From Escherichia coli (lineage in GTDB: Bacteria > Pseudomonadota > Gammaproteobacteria > Enterobacterales > Enterobacteriaceae), in the NCBI RefSeq assembly GCF_013315695.1, contig NZ_CP054353.1: a stretch of DNA of 64,000 nucleotides. One strand, given 5' to 3'. Both the position numbers and the translations under genes were made by a program. The notes under the pieces are model-generated. The model was not told the origin of the DNA and made no database searches. It was given only the letters and a program-made list of their open reading frames with translations. Numbering within the stretch: the first letter of the stretch is position 1; every line of letters starts with the position of its first letter. Positions 2,922 to 56,195 of the stretch are shown here, piece by piece.

Positions 2922-2976
2922 GGTGATGCTGCCAACTTACTGATTTAGTGTATGATGGTGTTTTTGAGGTGCTCCA

Positions 2977-3252
2977 GTGGCTTCTGTTTCTATCAGCTGT
3001 CCCTCCTGTTCAGCTACTGACGGGGTGGTGCGTAACGGCAAAAGCACCGCCGGACATCAGCGCTATCTCTGCTCTCACTGCCGTAAAACATGGCAACTGC
3101 AGTTCACTTACACCGCTTCTCAACCCGGTACGCACCAGAAAATCATTGATATGGCCATGAATGGCGTTGGATGCCGGGCAACAGCCCGCATTATGGGCGT
3201 TGGCCTCAACACGATTTTACGTCACTTAAAAAACTCAGGCCGCAGTCGGTAA
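2977..3252 (+). CDS. insA: IS1 InsA
   Basis: 91-aa product [39 protein letters not shown]... Confidence 0.95.
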
Positions 3253-3674
3253 CCTCGCGCATACAGCCGGGCAGTGACGTCATCGTCTGCGCGGAAATGG
3301 ACGAACAGTGGGGCTATGTCGGGGCTAAATCGCGCCAGCGCTGGCTGTTTTACGCGTATGACAGGCTCCGGAAGACGGTTGTTGCGCACGTATTCGGTGA
3401 ACGCACTATGGCGACGCTGGGGCGTCTTATGAGCCTGCTGTCACCCTTTGACGTGGTGATATGGATGACGGATGGCTGGCCGCTGTATGAATCCCGCCTG
3501 AAGGGAAAGCTGCACGTAATCAGCAAGCGATATACGCAGCGAATTGAGCGGCATAACCTGAATCTGAGGCAGCACCTGGCACGGCTGGGACGGAAGTCGC
3601 TGTCGTTCTCAAAATCGGTGGAGCTGCATGACAAAGTCATCGGGCATTATCTGAACATAAAACACTATCAATAA
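3171..3674 (+). CDS. insB: IS1 InsB frame (expressed as InsAB' by -1 frameshifting)
   Basis: 167-aa frame overlapping the insA 3' end; sequence typical of IS1 transposase. Confidence 0.9.
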
Positions 3675-3888
3675 GTTGGAGTCATTACCGTGATAAACAT
3701 CCGGTTTCTTCCACCATCGCACCGGACAGGCGACTATGAGGGGACAACGCCGCGCTCCGTTAACGCGGTAAACCCCGGTGTGTATCGTTTTTGATTATCC
3801 CCGCACACTCGCGCAGAGGAGTCTCCCTGTCGGGCTGCGGTCTCTGTTAATGAGGGAATACAGCGACGATACGGCGCATCAACAAAAC

Positions 3889-4356
3889 TTATTTCAGGCA
3901 CTGAGTACGGATATATTCCTGCGCCCCTTCCAGTTGCTTCTGCATCGTCATCAGCCGCTCTCTGAGGGTGAAATAATCCCGTGTAACGGTGTCTGCCAGT
4001 TGGGGGCCGGTTGCATTATCCACGCGGGCGGTGCCGGTGGCTTCACGCACGGGACCTGGACAGGTGGCGTTGATACGCAGGCGCTTACGACCAGCGGCAA
4101 CGTCAGCGCGAAGAGTTTCATTTTCAGCTTTCGCATCAGCTAACTCCTTCGTGTATTTTGCATCGAGCGCAGCAACATCACGCTGACGCATCTGCATGTC
4201 AGTAATTGCCGCGTTCGCCAGCTTCAGTTCTCTGACATTTTTGTCGCGCTGGGCTTTGTAGGTAATGGCGTTATCACGGTAATGATTCAGCCCCAGACTA
4301 AGCGCACCACAGGCCACCAGCAGGGCAATGATGACCACGCACAGTACGCGGTTCAT
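3889..4356 (-). CDS. Rz i-spanin
   Basis: 155-aa product with N-terminal TM segment ([16 protein letters not shown]) and coiled-coil-like periplasmic part; contains an embedded Rz1 frame. Confidence 0.85.
3951..4136 (-). CDS. Rz1 o-spanin lipoprotein, embedded in Rz in another frame
   Basis: 61-aa frame with signal peptide plus lipobox-like LVVSAC and a proline-rich mature part. Confidence 0.7.
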
Positions 4357-4357
4357 T

Positions 4358-4456
4358 TCACCACCAGCGTATCTGACCGATGAAATAACCGGAGGCCATA
4401 ATCACAAACACCAGCCAGATAAGAATGAACTTCCAGGTGGATAATTTTTCAGCCAT
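4358..4456 (-). CDS. putative 32-aa single-TM peptide, translationally coupled to Rz
   Basis: ATG preceded by GGGAG at 9-nt spacing; product [32 protein letters not shown]; its TGA lies 1 nt before the Rz ATG. Confidence 0.35.
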
Positions 4457-4654
4457 CACTCGAATCTCCCGAATCAGTTTGCTAAAATCAAACACACTTT
4501 CTCCTTTGACTTTTCCGGAGTCAGGAAACACAAAACCCCGCTTGGTGCCAACAAACGGGGTTTTTACTTTTATTCACTTACGTTTCGCCAGTTCGCAGGA
4601 TTTCGTGTTATCCGCCCGCGTGGCCATGCCTTATTTTTCAGCAAAATATTCTGC

Positions 4655-5188
4655 TTATCTGTCGATTCCCCAGCACGCCAGCGCGCTCTCCTGGTCACGA
4701 CGGGATACCTGACCATAACAGTTGTTTGAGCGGATACGGCAGTCTCTGCCACCGTCCTTAATCCACCAGCGAATCGCCTCACACGCTCCCCTGCGATCAC
4801 CTGCATTAATTCGTTTATAAAACGTCGACGGGAAACACTTACCGGGACCAATGTTGTACGGACAGAATGACGCGATCCCCGCTTTCTGGGGTTCACTCAA
4901 TGGCACTCTGATGTTTTTCTCCACCCATGCCAGCGCCTCATCACGCTCAATGGCGTTAACCCGGTCGCATTTTTCCTTCGACAACTTCATGCCCGGAACG
5001 ACAGGTTTGCCATCCACCAGGATGGCACCGCGGCAGATGGTCCAGATACCCGCACCATCACGGTATGCCGTGGTGTGGTTACCTTCCTTTTCATCCAGAA
5101 ACTGGTCGAGAATGTCAGGCGCAGGCGCACCAGCGGCAATCAGCGCCAGAACGGCAGCCGACAGGCCGTATCTGATTTTTGCGTTCAT
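4655..5188 (-). CDS. SAR endolysin (phage lysozyme, T4-lysozyme family)
   Basis: 177-aa product; N-terminal weakly hydrophobic signal-anchor-release segment (YGLSAAVLALIAAGAPAP) followed by a lysozyme-like domain. Confidence 0.85.
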   Translation of the reverse strand: MNAKIRYGLSAAVLALIAAGAPAPDILDQFLDEKEGNHTTAYRDGAGIWTICRGAILVDGKPVVPGMKLSKEKCDRVNAIERDEALAWVEKNIRVPLSEPQKAGIASFCPYNIGPGKCFPSTFYKRINAGDRRGACEAIRWWIKDGGRDCRIRSNNCYGQVSRRDQESALACWGIDR

Positions 5189-5293: not shown

Positions 5294-5566
5294 ATGGACA
5301 ATAACACCATTTCTCTACAGGAGTTGCTCGACAGCATTTCCAGGCTTCGGGAAGACGTGAATACCCTTACCGTCGCCTTCTCATATCTGGCATTCTCAAT
5401 TCCAAGGGAACAGATGCAATCAACGCTGGCATCAATCCAGTTTGAATCATGCAATCCCAAATGGTCTCAGGAACAACAAGACTCTTTCAGGCGGCTTGCT
5501 GTATTACTGGATGAAAAATATGCTGGTAAAATTACCATTTCGGCGGACTCTTCAGAGAACCCGTAA
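5294..5566 (+). CDS. hypothetical protein (90 aa), opposite strand to the lysis genes
   Basis: ATG with GAGGA 6 nt upstream; no recognised domain; 3' end overlaps the convergent 114-aa ORF by 35 bp. Confidence 0.4.
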   Translation: MDNNTISLQELLDSISRLREDVNTLTVAFSYLAFSIPREQMQSTLASIQFESCNPKWSQEQQDSFRRLAVLLDEKYAGKITISADSSENP

Positions 5567-5876
5567 TTATTCCCGGTAGTTTTCCTCTGTAGGTTATCAA
5601 CACATCCTGCGCCTCTAAAATTACGGGGCGCTTTTCCGGCGACTGCTCATCCCCTTCACATAACCCGGCAGCAACATCCAGGAAGACCTGTCTGATGCTC
5701 CTTCTGGCTGCTGCCTCATAAAACTCCAGCGCGGCACCTTCAACACGGTCCAGCGAGATGTCCAGGTCAAAAATTTCACCGTCAAAGCGTTTTTTGTCCC
5801 GTAACGCTAAAGTTACCGTAACTTTATTCTCAAAATTGCGGATCCCTTTCACAATCAGTTCATAGTTTTGAGTCAT
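5532..5876 (-). CDS. hypothetical protein (114 aa) immediately downstream of the holin
   Basis: ATG 4 nt after the holin stop with GGGGAGAG as SD; soluble-looking product MTQNYELIVKGIRNFENKV...; no recognised domain. Confidence 0.55.
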   Translation of the reverse strand: MTQNYELIVKGIRNFENKVTVTLALRDKKRFDGEIFDLDISLDRVEGAALEFYEAAARRSIRQVFLDVAAGLCEGDEQSPEKRPVILEAQDVLITYRGKLPGIITGSLKSPPKW

Positions 5877-5880
5877 TGAA

Positions 5881-6096
5881 TTACTCTCCCCGTGCAGCCT
5901 TACGACGGTCCTCTCTGATTTTGAAATACAGGTTAGTCAGATATGTCAGCAGCCCAAACAGCAGACTCCCCAGCACGCCTATTGCCGCCCACTGAGACGG
6001 GGAAACCCTGTCCAGCAACTGCAGGAACCAGTAGCCCGTTCCCACCGCTGACGTGGTGTATGACACACCTGTTGTGATTTTTTCCATCTGGTACAT
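5881..6096 (-). CDS. class II pinholin, phage-21 S-like, dual start (71-aa and 68-aa forms)
   Basis: [13 protein letters not shown]... with two in-frame Met codons 3 codons apart (starts at 6096 and 6087); two TM segments; C-terminus ...[14 protein letters not shown]; ORF-track ORF extends to 6174. Confidence 0.8.
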
Positions 6097-6246: not shown

Positions 6247-8100
6247 TTATGATGATGCCGGTGCATTTATCTCCAGCACCAGACTTTCTATCTCAACGCC
6301 ATACGCTGCATTTTTGGTAATATCCGTCAGCGTCAGCGCATTCAGCCCCAGTGTCAGACTGTCTTTTATGACCTGGAATGCCGGGCCAGCCACTCCATTC
6401 AGTTTCGGAGTAACCGTGGCACTGCCGGCGGTGAACACCAGCTCCAGCGTCTGCCAGTCGTTACTGTAATTCCCGAACTCGCCCAACTTTGTGTTTCCTG
6501 CTTTCTTGTGATGCATCAGATTCAGTTTGCCGTCTGTGGTCTGGGTGAAGAACGACATCAGGAACGGGTTACCAGTCCCGGTCATCGCCACGACGTCAGG
6601 TAACGCTACATCGGTATACAGATAAATTCCCAGACCGAACTGGTTGTTGGTCAGTGCGCCTGACAGTCGAAACTTACAGCTCAGTCTGCCACCCCGTGTC
6701 AGCAGGGAGACTGCGTCATCCACCGGGCGCGTCAGGGACCAGGCTTTATTGCTCTGCTTGGTGATCTTAAATACACCATCTGACAACTGAATTCCGCCAT
6801 TCTTAATGCTCCAGCCCTGCGCAGCAGCGTCTCCGGCTGTCGGCAACAGGGAGATTGTGCGTATGGATGCATCTTCAGACGGCCCCGATGGCGTGTCGCC
6901 GCCGGGCGAGGGTTTGATTTCCGGTGCCTTACCACTAATGAAGGCTAAGGTGCGACCGGCTACGTTCAGAATAGCAGTTGCCATACGATCGGGAATAATG
7001 CCACGACGCGCCCATGAGCTGAAATGCGTCGGGCGATTTGATGATACCCAGTTTTTGTTCGTTCGGGATGCCGAACCGTAATAACCAGACCCGGCAATAT
7101 CAGGATCTTCTGACGGGTTGTTTGTCGGTGTATTAACTCCGCTACCATCGGTCATAAAGGGAACAAAATAAATCTGCTGGGATTCTTTACCTTTATATGC
7201 ACCATATACCACTTCATATTGCGTACCGTGTTCTTGTTTCCACGCGTATGTCGTGTCGCCACAAATCCAGGGGACTGATGCCGGACTTCCACCGTGACAC
7301 TGCGCCGCCAGCCCGGCAAGGTCAGCACGGAACTGCTGTACCATTGCAAGAAATGCTGCTGGCTGCTGGGCGTAACTGGCATTCGTCATATCGAATTCCC
7401 CCTGCATCCAGCATATCGCCAGCAAAACGTTTTTCGGGTTTTTCTGCAATGCTGCCTTCGTGCGGAAAAGCAGATCCTGATATAACGGCTTACCCACTCC
7501 CCAGCGAGCCGAATCCTGACTGGCTCCCGTGGACTCGCTGAATGTCCCCTCCGTGCCCTGGGTGAATGCCGAACCACCACGACAGCATGGTACCAGCAGG
7601 ATCCCCGCATTATTAGGGATATACGGAAGCAGTTTTTTGGCAATATGTAAGCCCTGTCCGACACAGCCGTACTGCCCTTTGCTCAGGTCAGCCCGGGGAT
7701 GGTTAATCGTACTCATATCCTGAACATCATGCAGACAATGGTCAGCAGGAATGATGTCGTTAAATACGCATACTTCACCACCGGGAGTCACTGTGTTACG
7801 ACGGGCCAGTTGCTTAATGCGCGGATGGGGCGCATCGTATGAATCCGGAAGCGGAAGCCCTTCACCGTAAGCCATGGCATTGGATTGCCCGGCCAGTACG
7901 ATGACGTAGTACCACTCCGGCTCAGTTGCACCACTGACGACCACATCACCTTCTGCTGCAATCGCCTGCATCAGGGTATAAGGGGTTATGGCCACCGGAC
8001 TACCAAACGGCTGCCAGCCCTCCTTCAGTTTTTGTGTCAGTCGTTTCGCAAGGTCTGACGGCGATGCCGCCCTGACCACGTCATAGTGTTTAAATGCCAT
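6247..8100 (-). CDS. prophage sialate O-acetylesterase-like SGNH hydrolase (NanS-p-like)
   Basis: 617-aa product; LAGQSNAMAYGEG block typical of SASA/SGNH esterases; GGGAGGA SD 5 nt upstream; position between tRNA genes and holin as in Stx-type lambdoid phages. Confidence 0.65.
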   Translation of the reverse strand: MAFKHYDVVRAASPSDLAKRLTQKLKEGWQPFGSPVAITPYTLMQAIAAEGDVVVSGATEPEWYYVIVLAGQSNAMAYGEGLPLPDSYDAPHPRIKQLARRNTVTPGGEVCVFNDIIPADHCLHDVQDMSTINHPRADLSKGQYGCVGQGLHIAKKLLPYIPNNAGILLVPCCRGGSAFTQGTEGTFSESTGASQDSARWGVGKPLYQDLLFRTKAALQKNPKNVLLAICWMQGEFDMTNASYAQQPAAFLAMVQQFRADLAGLAAQCHGGSPASVPWICGDTTYAWKQEHGTQYEVVYGAYKGKESQQIYFVPFMTDGSGVNTPTNNPSEDPDIAGSGYYGSASRTNKNWVSSNRPTHFSSWARRGIIPDRMATAILNVAGRTLAFISGKAPEIKPSPGGDTPSGPSEDASIRTISLLPTAGDAAAQGWSIKNGGIQLSDGVFKITKQSNKAWSLTRPVDDAVSLLTRGGRLSCKFRLSGALTNNQFGLGIYLYTDVALPDVVAMTGTGNPFLMSFFTQTTDGKLNLMHHKKAGNTKLGEFGNYSNDWQTLELVFTAGSATVTPKLNGVAGPAFQVIKDSLTLGLNALTLTDITKNAAYGVEIESLVLEINAPASS

Positions 8101-8322: not shown

Positions 8323-8325
8323 GTC

Positions 8326-8562
8326 CATAAGAAAGCCCCTCCGGAGAGGGGCTAAAGCCGCGTATCTGTATCATCATGCACATGGTGCCGGGTGCCTCCC
8401 GGTGAGTTCAGCCCGGTGCCACTAAACCCGCGTCATTCTCGTTTTGATAATCAGAGATTATACCGTCACCAGTCGCCCCTCCGCTCAGGGGGATTCACCA
8501 TGCGAAATTTTTTTAACAAATGCCCAGTCTGACAGGCAACTGTCAACTTACTGAATTGTGAG
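8326..8562. repeat. direct repeat copy A (about 237 bp) in the late operon
   Basis: Shares with copy B the blocks AAAGCCCCTCCGGAGAGGGGCT, CATGGTGCCGGGTGCCTCCCGGTGA, GCCCCTCCGC-CAGGGGGATTCACCATGC, TTTTAACAAA and CTGAATTGTGAG. Confidence 0.6.
8335..8352 (-). terminator. hairpin GCCCCTC-CGGA-GAGGGGC with downstream U-rich tract on the minus strand (repeat A)
   Basis: Perfect 7-bp GC stem; in minus orientation followed by TTTCTT. Confidence 0.45.
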
Positions 8563-8812
8563 CAACATAGCATTTAACGGGGAACCTGTTTTCTGCAGTA
8601 AAAAGGCCCACCGGAGCGGATGGGCCTGGAAGGATAGCGGTCATGTGATGCCGGTTTCCCGGTAACTCAGCACCGGTATCTGAGTCAACGTTTTCTCTAC
8701 TGGGTCATTTCCGATACGCCCTGCCTGCTGACAGGCTTTCATCACATCTGAAAATATAGCACCCTGACTGATACTGTAGTACCTAAGGTTCCAGAAACTG
8801 TGATGTATCCGG

Positions 8813-9038
8813 CACAGAAAAGCCCCTCCGGAGAGGGGCTGGAGAGTGGCGCTATGTGCCATTGCATGGTGCCGGGTGCCTCCCGGTGAATTCAGTACCA
8901 GCACCTGAATCCGCGATTATCCCATATACCTACTCGCTGATTGCCCCTCCGCACAGGGGGATTCACCATGCCAGTTTCTTTTAACAAACTCCCCGCAAAC
9001 CAGACAACAGTCAACCGCCTGAATTGTGAGACATTTAA
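8813..9038. repeat. direct repeat copy B
   Basis: Imperfect copy of repeat A about 480 bp away. Confidence 0.6.
8822..8839 (-). terminator. hairpin GCCCCTC-CGGA-GAGGGGC with downstream U-rich tract on the minus strand (repeat B)
   Basis: Same hairpin as copy A; in minus orientation followed by TTTTCT. Confidence 0.45.
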
Positions 9039-9074: not shown

Positions 9075-9151
9075 TGGCGCGTTGTACTGGATTCGAACCA
9101 GTGACCGATTGCTTAGAAGGCAATTGCTCTGTCCGGCTGAGCTAACAACGC
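9075..9151 (-). tRNA. tRNA-Arg (anticodon UCU)
   Basis: Manual fold of the reverse complement: acceptor GCGTTGT/ACAACGC, D-arm GCTC/GAGC, anticodon stem ATTGC/GCAAT with loop CTTCTAA, T-arm ACTGG-TTCGAAT-CCAGT, discriminator G, CCA encoded. Confidence 0.8.
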
Positions 9152-9164
9152 AGGATACAGATAA

Positions 9165-9241
9165 TGGACCGCCTTCGGGGACCCGAACTCCGCGCAACCA
9201 GCTTCGAAAGCTGGCGCTCTTTCCTGATGAGCTAATGGCGG
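9165..9241 (-). tRNA. tRNA-like gene, Arg-type (anticodon UCG by manual fold), possibly degenerate
   Basis: D-arm TAGCTCATCAGGAAAGAGC, anticodon stem CCAGC/GCTGG with loop TTTCGAA, CCA encoded; one mismatch in the acceptor stem and one in the T stem; T-loop TTCGGGT is non-consensus. Confidence 0.5.
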
Positions 9242-9248
9242 TATGTGA

Positions 9249-9324
9249 TGGTGGCCCTTGCTGGATTTGAACCAGCGACCTGGCGATTATGAGTCGCTCG
9301 CTCTCACCACTGAGCTAAAGGGCC
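9249..9324 (-). tRNA. tRNA with CAU anticodon, ileX-like (tRNA-Ile2/lysidine type; could be Met)
   Basis: Acceptor GGCCCTT/AAGGGCC perfect, anticodon loop CTCATAA, T-arm GCTGG-TTCAAAT-CCAGC, discriminator A, CCA encoded; closely resembles E. coli ileX from memory. Confidence 0.8.
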
Positions 9325-13534: not shown

Positions 13535-13690
13535 TTACTCCTCAGGTTCGTAAGCTGTGAAGACAGCGACCTCCGTCTGGCCGGTTCGGAGTCGTACCTC
13601 GCAGAGGTCTTTCCTCGTTACCAGTGCCGTCACTATGACGGTTAAACAGATGACGATCAGGGCGATTAACATCGCCTTTTGCTGCTTCAT
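13535..13690 (-). CDS. hok: Hok/Gef-family type I toxin (HokD-like)
   Basis: 51-aa product MKQQKAMLIALIVICLTVIVTALVTRKDLCEVRLRTGQTEVAVFTAYEPEE; the ORF-track ORF carries a 19-codon in-frame upstream extension. Confidence 0.85.
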   Translation of the reverse strand: MKQQKAMLIALIVICLTVIVTALVTRKDLCEVRLRTGQTEVAVFTAYEPEE

Positions 13691-13927
13691 AGCCTGCTTC
13701 CCCTTGCCTTTCGGCACGTAAGAGGCTAACCTACATTTGTGAGACATAGATTGGGCCTCAGATTAATGTTAAGCGTCTTGCAGGACGCGAAATGTTAACT
13801 GGGGCTTTTCTCTATCTGCCTTTCAGTGTTCATGCCTGAGACAGATAGCCTCAAGCACCCGCAGCCATTCTACTTAACTCACGTCACCTCGCCAATATGA
13901 AATCAATCAGAAAGGTGATCCATAAAA

Positions 13928-20017: not shown

Positions 20018-20588
20018 TTCACCCTCCTGAGGGTTGGTAATTAAGGAGTTCTCCACGGGTCAGGTGGAGTGCGTGCGCCGGACACGGGTGAGCATCCGGC
20101 ACTGACAGCTTACTGAAAGGATATGTCCCTGAAAAGTCAGGGCATAACGCGAAAGCGCACGGCGAAATTGGTCTCTCTGTACGGTGTCGTTAAATTTAGT
20201 TCGACCGTGCGCTTCCGGTTGTGGCACTCCGCGAAATGGCGCGGCGGTAAGTATGGCTGGGGTTTCCTCCATTGCTCCAGAAAATGCACCGGGTTGTCAG
20301 GTTGACCATACGCTTAAGTGACAACCCCGCTACAACGCCCTCTGTTATCAATTTTCTGGTGACATTTGGCGGTATCAGTTTTACTCCGTGACTGCTCTGC
20401 CGCCCTTTTTAAAGTGAATTTTGTGATGCGGTGAATGCGGCTATGCGCACGCGGAACAGTTAAAGCAGTAAGGCGGTATTTTACGGGCGTAACGAGCATC
20501 AACTAACCCGGCGTTAATTGTTAACTGGTTAACGTCACCTGGAGGCACCAGGCACTGCATCACAAAATTCATTGTTGAGGACGCGATA

Positions 20589-32550: not shown

Positions 32551-33473
<923 letters not shown>

Positions 33474-55992: not shown

Positions 55993-56076
<84 letters not shown>

Positions 56077-56110
56077 TCTCAAGCATTACCTCAAAATTTG
56101 AATTACCCTT

Positions 56111-56195
<85 letters not shown>

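Follow-up and report, generated by a model that had tools for sequence, protein, structure and literature searches.

This study concerns a locus in a 64,000-nucleotide stretch of Escherichia coli DNA (contig NZ_CP054353.1; the whole stretch is referred to as the window) at which the surrounding genes form a lambdoid lysis cassette. Between the genes for endolysin R and the i-spanin Rz lies a short open reading frame (ORF), placed by an earlier reading of the sequence (the original prediction) at 4358-4456 and described there as a 32-codon minus-strand frame with a GGGAG Shine-Dalgarno (SD) sequence and a stop codon 1 nt ahead of the Rz ATG. All of these elements are present. On the minus strand, the ORF runs from ATG 4456-4454 through 32 codons to TGA 4360-4358, the single base 4357 separates that TGA from the Rz ATG at 4356, and GGGAG occupies 4470-4466, 9 nt ahead of the ATG. 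We propose that this ORF is the inner frame of a conserved 45-codon gene (phrog_6632) carried in a portable, moron-like module, an overall explanation drawn from comparative sequence data to which we give about an even chance.

A conserved gene of 45 codons

The original extent of 32 codons describes a frame that exists, but the frame remains open and conserved for 13 codons further upstream, to GTG 4495, as judged from the PHROG profile and from homologs that align there. The phrog_6632 profile (45 positions, function uncharacterized) matches residues 1 to 45 over positions 1 to 45 with an E value of 1.2e-29. The 45-amino-acid (aa) sequence is identical to RefSeq WP_000459345.1, a hypothetical protein called by the Prokaryotic Genome Annotation Pipeline (PGAP) in some E. 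coli genomes, and homologs in Salmonella phages SPN3UB and SEN34, in Rac-SA53, and in Pseudomonas phage YMC11/02/R656 align from residue 1. The description of the gene as unannotated is right for most phage records, among them those of H-19B and of many Stx1a, Stx2a, and Stx2c phages, which omit it, but not for the genomes in which PGAP calls it; some pipelines annotate the 32-aa form.

An exhaustive profile search of 1.84 billion representative proteins yielded 57 clusters at 50% identity, nearly all of 42 to 54 aa. Relatives of 45 to 50 aa occur in Escherichia, Salmonella, and Pseudomonas phages, the Pseudomonas phage homologs being 37% identical. Members share the motif xDFSKLIRELRxMxEKLPxWRF, followed by a hydrophobic segment and often by RWW at the end.

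The 4.5 kb around the locus contain 63 ORFs of at least 25 aa, so that a lone 32-codon ORF is not beyond chance; we count this one as real because it is conserved. Pairwise comparison of 43 distinct 45-codon alleles gave a ratio of nonsynonymous to synonymous substitutions (dN/dS) of 0.17 to 0.20, with dS near 1. The N-terminal 13 residues show conservative replacements, of the types L/I/V/F and R/K/H, consistent with protein-level selection. Hydrophobic replacements in the family are conservative as well, and the reading frame is intact in essentially all copies. The low dN/dS and the conservative N-terminal replacements therefore indicate that the sequence is protein coding over all 45 codons. 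Thus, what is conserved is the protein and not the nucleotide sequence alone, and the hydrophobic single-pass peptide that had been proposed to lie between the endolysin and Rz genes has a genuine coding sequence (dN/dS about 0.2; PHROG 6632 match). Based on these comparisons, we are confident that this is a real protein-coding gene and consider the existence of the 45-codon form very probable. It should be annotated with 45 codons and a GTG start.

Table 1. Positions in the window of the peptide gene, its leader and predicted regulatory elements, and the lysis cassette
Feature	Position	Strand	Basis or comment
Long ORF, 45 codons plus stop	4358..4495	-	GTG 4495-4493, TGA 4360-4358; phrog_6632 profile match
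SD AAGGAG of the long form	4501..4506	-	5 nt ahead of GTG 4495; kept in leader alignments
32-codon ORF, candidate product of internal start ATG (Met14)	4358..4456	-	Met14 conservation
Candidate internal SD GGGAG (codons 9-10)	4466..4470	-	9 nt ahead of ATG 4456
Hairpin 1, intrinsic-terminator-like stem flanked by an A tract and, on the opposite side, a T tract	4532..4564	both	Terminator scan
Hairpin 2 (CCTGACT...AGTCAAAGG), 3' arm overlapping the SD	4503..4525	-	Fold; pairing kept in other copies
Predicted extended -10 promoter TGcTAAAAT	4480..4488	+	Built from codons 3-6
Weak -35-like TCGAAT	4460-4465	+	
Predicted cis-antisense RNA, about 75-80 nt	4495..4572	+	Promoter and terminator positions
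Rz (i-spanin)	3889-4356	-	Pfam Phage_lysis, E value 4e-51
Rz1, embedded in Rz	3951-4136	-	
Endolysin R	4655-5188	-	Pfam Phage_lysozyme, E value 2e-23
YdfR/DUF1327	5532-5876	-	
P21-type holin	5881-6096	-	PF04971

A probable internal start and a junction with Rz

The ATG of the 32-codon ORF corresponds to Met14 of the long form, which is found in 31 of 32 nonredundant copies, and Glu10, within the internal SD, is encoded by GAG in all 32. The SD-like stretch 5 to 15 nt ahead of the Met14 ATG forms a duplex with the anti-SD sequence at a mean of -7.5 kcal/mol, compared to -4.2 for synonymous shuffles. The native stretch is the stronger in every one of the 32 copies and is on par with the SD of the first start (-6.8). 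The SD and ATG singled out in the original prediction thus behave as a conserved internal initiation site, and on balance we think it somewhat more probable that this start is used than that it is idle. The locus may therefore yield two nested peptides, of which only the first start would be covered by the antisense RNA predicted below.

The arrangement of stop codon, 1 nt, and Rz ATG is kept in 117 of 119 related endolysin-Rz loci, so the translational coupling to Rz that had been suggested from this geometry is plausible, and Rz synthesis may in turn inherit the control of the peptide. The last codons of the peptide, TGG TGG TGA, resemble an SD for Rz. Outside the endolysin-Rz contexts, the gene is coupled to nothing.

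The leader RNA and the extent of the module

Across genomic contexts, DNA homology runs from about 10 nt upstream of hairpin 1 to the peptide stop codon. Hairpin 1 has an AAA...UUU base and a GC-rich stem, is bidirectional by sequence, and folds on both strands (means of -22.5 and -20.9 kcal/mol, slightly more stable on the sense strand). Compensatory changes occur in 7 of its 12 pairs (RNAalifold), and 99% of its cells are paired in a covariance-model alignment. In hairpin 2, pairing is kept despite sequence changes, as CCTGACT/AGTCAAAGG in the window and as CCTTG/CAAGG, CCTTCTG/CAGAAGG, or TCCTAT/ATAGGA elsewhere. When searched with a covariance model of the leader, the window gives a single hit (4487-4571, 66.7 bits), and every family member has a hit ahead of it. 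In the 44-sequence alignment to this model, 98.4% of cells pair and two-sided changes are seen in 10 of 15 pairs, including 5 of 5 in hairpin 2; none of 500 shuffles reached these values and slid controls were far lower, with the provisos that the alignment behind the pair counts was itself fitted to the structure and that the compared sequences are related, so that p-values overstate independence. In Rfam, the locus had only subthreshold matches, which were driven by the terminator, and related loci had none.

Start codons in 86 distinct modules are mostly weak (GTG in 66, TTG in 7, ATG in 11), and accessibility of the first SD is 0.37 in native leaders compared to 0.50 in leader shuffles, being lower in 25 of 32 copies; this occlusion is modest. 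Together, the features of the first start point to throttled translation. The conserved block has no conserved sense promoter, and the terminator hairpin lies directly upstream. Since the module lacks a sense promoter of its own, the peptide would have to come from late transcripts that extend through hairpin 1.

Hits of the covariance model also lie ahead of other small ORFs that have unrelated N termini, a C-terminal transmembrane (TM) segment, and usually an AIRWW end. Examples are MKLYRNFFRMRLSMKDGTFELQSPVSNSINRAVTYAICIISTGVAAWLVLHSLAAIRWW and a 60-aa ORF that replaces the family gene in some E. coli cassettes. When the family was compared with these "type B" peptides by hhalign, the alignment covered no more than the last 18 columns (probability, 75%). 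We therefore take the two groups to share an RNA cassette and a tail but do not unite them in a protein superfamily.

Next to the module but outside it, a noncoding minus-strand stretch of about 85 nt (4571-4654) between the endolysin stop and hairpin 1, which includes GCCACGCGGGCGGATAACAC, is kept between E. coli cassettes and Salmonella phage SPN3UB.

A predicted promoter and antisense RNA on the opposite strand

Codons 3 to 6 are frozen at their third positions, with conservation of 0.91, 0.94, 0.97, and 0.88 compared to 0.34 to 0.59 at ordinary codons, and dS is 0.36 over codons 2 to 13 versus 0.88 over codons 15 to 45. The amino acids at the frozen codons vary (D/N/H/E; F/I/L/S/Y; S/I/T). 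The fixed bases amount to TGnTAnnnT on the opposite strand, a motif that resembles an extended -10 promoter element. It occurs in the same register in 29 of 32 nonredundant diverged copies, is found only one other time on that strand of these ORFs, and persists in the GC-rich Pseudomonas copies by way of GAT TTT AGC. All seven of the unrelated leader-linked ORFs also carry an opposite-strand TAnnnT whose 3' end lies 5 to 13 nt inside the ORF, in one case a perfect TATAAT. Among three small ORFs that lack the leader, this hexamer is missing in two and weak, with no TG, in the third.

A transcript from this putative promoter would start at about 4495, end at hairpin 1 and its U tract (about 4565-4572), and complement the start codon, the SD, and hairpin 2; its predicted fold has two stem-loops at -23.2 kcal/mol. 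Such an RNA would account for the terminator at the 5' end of the module, because it would stop the antisense transcript from entering the upstream late gene, and for the conserved A tract ahead of hairpin 1, because this would serve as the U tract of the opposite strand.

One alternative does without an antisense RNA. The frozen codons 3 to 12 would then serve sense needs, as an unstructured AU-rich region and an internal SD, and hairpin 1 would be a sense terminator or mRNA stabilizer. AU-rich early codons are general in bacterial genes and, where they follow a weak start, may account for some of the synonymous constraint, while the internal SD accounts for the GAG of Glu10. The sense strand gives the slightly more stable form of hairpin 1, as noted above, the antisense -35 is poor (on average 2.5 of 6 matches), a two-hexamer promoter scan does not call the site, and the G-U asymmetry favors neither strand clearly. 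AU-richness does not, however, explain the fixed C of AGC or ATC, the invariant wobble base of Ser/Ile codon 5 that provides the G of the TG motif. Nor does this alternative explain GAT TTT in GC-rich Pseudomonas copies or TAnnnT at the same place in unrelated leader-linked ORFs, and the conserved A tract 5' of hairpin 1 makes sense only as an opposite-strand U tract. We regard the alternative as somewhat unlikely and lean slightly toward the existence of the antisense RNA.

Further points weigh against the antisense RNA and the expression model in which we place it, beyond the poor -35, the silent scan, the uninformative G-U asymmetry, the AU-rich codons, and the provisos on the leader statistics. 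SD occlusion, as noted, is modest. It is difficult to see how downstream genes could be well expressed in baseplate or head operons, which are not known to be antiterminated, with a 5' terminator inside them. The lists of Hfq-bound small RNAs (sRNAs) of O157 Sakai contain nothing between R and Rz in prophages Sp10 and Sp15, which is a weak test, as these two carry a different insert there. More generally, the predicted RNA is not in the published enterohemorrhagic E. coli and Salmonella sRNA lists examined, and no Rfam family matches it; the Sakai prophages that were checked carry that different insert. The expression model as a whole is built by comparison of sequences.

Several published or predicted elements were considered as counterparts and set aside. 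Inspection by eye shows no conservation of the plus-strand promoter-like site at 4373-4402, called by the scan, in Rac-SA53 or SPN3UB. STnc2080 is located upstream of a tRNA-Arg gene, with STnc1380 listed about 30 kb from it on the same strand; to judge from this listing and not from mapping, neither appears to be at a lysis cassette. The Pas sRNAs are located between esterase and holin genes, EcOnc11 lies downstream of Rz, and Sakai prophages Sp10 and Sp15 have ant plus a different small TM ORF ahead of Rz. EcOnc22 (about 85 nt, antisense) occupies the tail I-J gap of Sp15, where there is no family ORF. This published Hfq-bound sRNA (locus L196, 2215-2275, plus strand; Sakai 2902714-2902774) lies over a terminator-like hairpin and is another antisense sRNA unit within a late operon, with a sequence unrelated to the module.

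Genomic contexts and distribution

We gathered 192 loci from phage records, IMG/VR, and assemblies. The gene lies between endolysin and Rz genes in 114 of them, between V-like and W-like baseplate genes in two types of myovirus tail (SEN34 and Rac-SA53) in 29, and elsewhere in about 35. The last group includes the K/I-J region of lambda-like tails (also in Pseudomonas phages), the gap between protease/scaffold and capsid genes of a Mu-like head operon, a place beside virion genes of a podovirus-like operon, and positions among ParE, RelB, HicAB, and YhaV toxin-antitoxin pairs just upstream of terminase. In all contexts the gene is co-oriented with the late genes, and the endolysins beside which it occurs in lysis cassettes are of at least three types.

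The full arrangement is held by 870 of 5,426 complete E. coli genomes, so that about one-sixth carry the gene beside spanin genes, Shiga toxin phages (H-19B and many Stx1a, Stx2a, and Stx2c phages) among them. Up to 12 places per E. coli genome match a 401-nt query made of the endolysin end, the module, and the Rz start; the K-12 Qin prophage lacks the family gene. The insert is facultative, as close relatives of the window cassette with the same holin and endolysin carry other inserts at the site. A facultative insert between conserved late genes is what defines a moron by position, and the gene behaves like one.

The sites themselves hold other small genes. In other E. coli prophages, different small single-TM ORFs occupy the endolysin-Rz gap, such as MSDKLITLAKILCVIVGISF..., a 60-aa ORF beginning MAKCKRILLRLTMKNG..., and the 37-aa MKGIEVETPASLDLTRAAAFAIRIVAIAVLVWAIRWW (L007, 2203-2531; L008, 2266-2379; L010, 2339-2687; L197, 2249-2395, minus strand). 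They are sometimes two or three in a row and sometimes follow an antirepressor gene, and the endolysin-Rz site is a hot spot for small membrane peptides. Just upstream of terminase, one prophage type (L091, 3920-6590; also L116 and L118) has three modules of leader plus small ORF that alternate with ParE/RelB-type toxin-antitoxin pairs; in the related loci L092, L093, and L095, the pairs flanking the module are of the HicAB type. In a Salmonella-type lysis region (L130, 974-2114), a pertussis-like ADP-ribosyltransferase toxin pair, recognized by eye and presumably ArtA/ArtB-like, lies between the endolysin gene and the module.

The predicted peptide and its possible roles

AlphaFold, run with a 42-sequence alignment, predicts a helix at residues 4 to 17, a break at 18 to 19 (Leu-Ser/Pro), and a second helix at 20 to 41, with a predicted local distance difference test score of 81. 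The first helix is amphipathic and predicted to be cytoplasmic, and inspection by eye suggests a heptad-like pattern in it; the second is the predicted TM helix, in line with the membrane peptide that had been envisaged, and only five residues, QIRWW, lie beyond it. Because the positive charges are on the N-terminal side, a tail anchor with the N terminus inside and the C terminus outside is probable, and the product is probably a tail-anchored inner membrane peptide with RWW at the periplasmic face. The RWW end is also kept where the gene is not coupled to anything, and we therefore regard it as a feature of the protein.

No significant sequence relatives were found in Pfam, NCBIfam, PADLOC, or the PDB, and nothing ties the peptide to an activity, which also counts against the role we favor. 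More specifically, no Pfam holin family matched any of 42 family members, four diverse members gave no PADLOC defense system match, and the peptide has no Phage_lysis (spanin) match, Rz and Rz1 being separate downstream genes. Our best guess is a late-expressed, tightly throttled, membrane-active accessory peptide. That it is membrane active or toxic when overproduced is a tentative suggestion, which we place a little below even, and that it modulates lysis seems to us rather unlikely.

The original prediction had pointed to lysis timing, and a dedicated 32-aa lysis cassette peptide could act with the pinholin, the signal-anchor-release (SAR) endolysin, or the spanin and be coupled to Rz. This would fit the position between endolysin and Rz in the window and in 114 of the 192 sampled loci, the conserved junction with the Rz ATG, the conserved internal SD and ATG, the other small TM ORFs at the same site in E. 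coli prophages, and the pairing of dual in-frame starts with an RNA stem-loop at the start, which recalls holin/antiholin genes. A lysis-specific role is nevertheless not indicated. Copies of the gene, with this leader, are also found where no lysis gene is next to them, in operons for baseplate, tail, and head and in the toxin-antitoxin islands upstream of terminase. The gene is, moreover, facultative among close relatives with the same holin and endolysin and found with several endolysin types, its 13 N-terminal codons are under protein-level selection, and the cassette already has a P21-type holin. We consider a dedicated lysis peptide unlikely.

Scatter through late operons and the proximity of ParE, RelB, HicAB, and YhaV modules would also suit a moron protein that is expressed from the prophage and serves in superinfection exclusion or defense, by blocking DNA entry or triggering abortive infection, with no role in lysis. 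Tail operons are known to encode small inner membrane exclusion proteins, such as HK97 gp15. Exclusion by an antisense RNA located in the late genes is described for prophage BTP1 (PMC7067206). Against this stand the missing PADLOC match and the lack of a sense promoter inside the conserved block with a terminator directly upstream, because of which protein expression from a repressed prophage looks unlikely. We judge this explanation to be quite improbable.

Translation of the ORF could alternatively be all that matters, opening the Rz start while the peptide itself has no function, as in orf45/anrP of Gifsy-1. The stop-ATG junction and the SD-like last codons would fit, and there is precedent for terminator read-through, a sequestered ribosome-binding site, and coupling (PMC4825925). 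Yet the protein is under purifying selection, the family spans enterobacterial and Pseudomonas phages, and the gene occurs without a coupled downstream gene, whereas the orf45 amino acid sequence is reported not to be conserved (PMC4825925); such a regulatory upstream ORF is very unlikely here. Finally, a chance ORF, conserved merely because its DNA carries the Rz ribosome-binding site and the endolysin terminator, is refuted by the comparative data and deserves almost no credence: short ORFs abound in the region, but not with a dN/dS of about 0.2 at dS near 1, conservative hydrophobic replacements, 37%-identity homologs in Pseudomonas phages, and an essentially always intact frame.

Other features of the window

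The Gly/Ala-rich hydrophobic N terminus of endolysin R, together with the neighboring P21-type holin, suggests that it is a SAR endolysin. About 170 to 230 bp past the Rz stop lies an IS1 (region 2950-3720; insA-like ORF at 2977-3252 and insB-like ORF at 3171-3674, both plus strand), which breaks up the region that holds YdfO, YnfO, or Bor-type genes in related prophages. It is doubtful whether the 90-aa plus-strand ORF at 5294-5566, which runs antisense to the 3' part of ydfR, is coding; its equivalent is called as a hypothetical protein by PGAP in other genomes (e.g., WP_001351274.1, locus L001). On the minus strand, Rfam identifies two STnc100 copies (8323-8532 and 8810-9000) and three tRNAs (9078-9324), with a 617-aa SASA-type esterase ORF (6247-8100, minus strand) downstream of them; this is the usual Q-tRNA-esterase region of Stx-like lambdoid prophages. 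Other Rfam matches at the gathering score are a sok antitoxin RNA, DicF, isrC, and two more tRNAs, for which the coordinates 13685-13860 (minus) and 20354-20405, 32619-32741, and 55993-56192 (all plus) are given.

Proposed mechanism and implications

The module that we propose would comprise a bidirectional terminator-like hairpin, a small hairpin whose pairing involves the SD, a start codon that is usually a weak one (GTG or TTG), a dual-start ORF, and an opposite-strand promoter in codons 3 to 6. In the lysogen, this promoter would yield an RNA of about 75 to 80 nt that stops at hairpin 1 and whose complementarity to the SD and start of the long form is complete. The antisense RNA and hairpin 2 together would hold the long form off and leave the internal start free, shifting output to the 32-aa form. 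During late transcription, sense RNA would exceed antisense RNA and both forms would be made. In this prophage, ribosomes would end the peptide 1 nt before the Rz ATG, and Rz translation would probably be coupled. If the model holds, lambdoid lysis cassettes gain an antisense-controlled, dual-start membrane peptide, and the locus joins the known cases of small RNA genes that lie within late operons. The leader, which a covariance model can detect, and the predicted antisense promoter behave as a control cassette that is reused for different small membrane peptides, which bears on how phages evolve tightly repressed, potentially toxic genes.

A bolder reading, which we consider speculative and improbable, is that these loci represent an undescribed class of phage switch, in which a self-contained antisense RNA gene and dual-start, nested, tail-anchored peptides have spread through late operons and engage in cross talk in trans. 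The switch cassette would then span the late operons of enterobacterial and Pseudomonas phages, its leader also serving other peptides that end in RWW. Near-identical leaders recur within a genome, so that a resident prophage could supply antisense RNA that acts in trans on a relative that is induced or superinfects the cell. If so, this RNA would restrain production of the long peptide and also, in lambdoid phages, of the spanin coupled to it, adding an RNA-based layer of cross talk or exclusion to lysis.

Comparison with known systems

Literature searches by accession or PHROG identifier found nothing, general searches of the lysis cassette literature found no paper on this ORF, and the peptide strings are absent from the supplements of Hücker 2017 on small genes of O157 Sakai. 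The peptide sequence is an identical and full-length match to WP_000459345.1 and phrog_6632, respectively, entries that give no function, leader, internal start, or antisense element.

Lambdoid morons are promoter-gene-terminator inserts in late operons. Like them, the module is a facultative single-gene insert between late genes, varies among close relatives, and encodes a small membrane protein. In contrast to them, its terminator is 5', and no sense promoter was found; the sole self-contained promoter-terminator unit is, by sequence, on the opposite strand.

The module shares with type I toxin-antitoxin systems (hok/sok, ldr/rdl, symE/symR, and zorO/orzO) a small hydrophobic peptide (45 aa with a TM segment at 20 to 41, within the size of under 60 aa for a type I membrane toxin), a structured 5' leader that hides the SD, and frequent prophage location. 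A further likeness would be the short cis-antisense RNA, predicted from the conserved extended -10 and terminator on the opposite strand, which would pair with the peptide mRNA over the translation start. It differs in that no conserved sense promoter, as a type I toxin gene would have, was found in the unit, so that transcription would need late-operon read-through of the 5' terminator, and in that the TM segment is C-terminal, behind an amphipathic helix.

Dual-start holin/antiholin genes include lambda S107/S105, with the sdi stem-loop, and S21 71/68. These too are membrane protein genes of lysis cassettes, and their two in-frame starts with a stem-loop at the first would have counterparts in the module. 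The candidate starts of the module are 13 codons apart rather than 2 or 3, its peptide has one TM helix, and the gene is facultative, occurs outside lysis cassettes, and here accompanies a P21-type holin. At least one TM segment and a location beside the endolysin, as expected of a holin, are found in the window, and 40% of related loci lack this combination.

The P22 sieB/esc locus with its sas antisense RNA was reportedly described by Ranade and Poteete in 1993. According to two later papers that cite this work, an antisense promoter lies inside the gene, an internal start gives a shortened product, and the antisense RNA is proposed to switch between products (PMC7067206, PMC12197685). The module, known from sequence alone, would resemble it in having an antisense promoter within the gene (here predicted), an in-frame internal start, and switch logic. 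SieB, however, is a far larger protein of the immunity region, and no sequence relationship was found.

In the experimentally studied isrK-orf45-anrP region of Gifsy-1, terminator read-through, a sequestered ribosome-binding site, and a stop codon abutting the next start lead to coupling (PMC4825925). The read-through transcript, the small ORF with a hidden ribosome-binding site, and the coupling geometry would be similar in our module. That locus lies elsewhere (after Q), its regulating sRNA is sense-strand and acts in trans, and the orf45 peptide is reported not to be conserved; orf45 is a different ORF at a different place and was set aside as the same gene.

In its apparent working, the module thus resembles type I toxin-antitoxin systems, sieB/esc-sas, and dual-start holin genes, and it departs from each in a defining respect: it has no toxin promoter, no homology to sieB, and is not a holin bound to the lysis cassette. 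The gene was already known as a cataloged hypothetical protein and a PHROG of uncharacterized function; what the present comparison adds is the leader, the probable antisense RNA, and the probable internal start.

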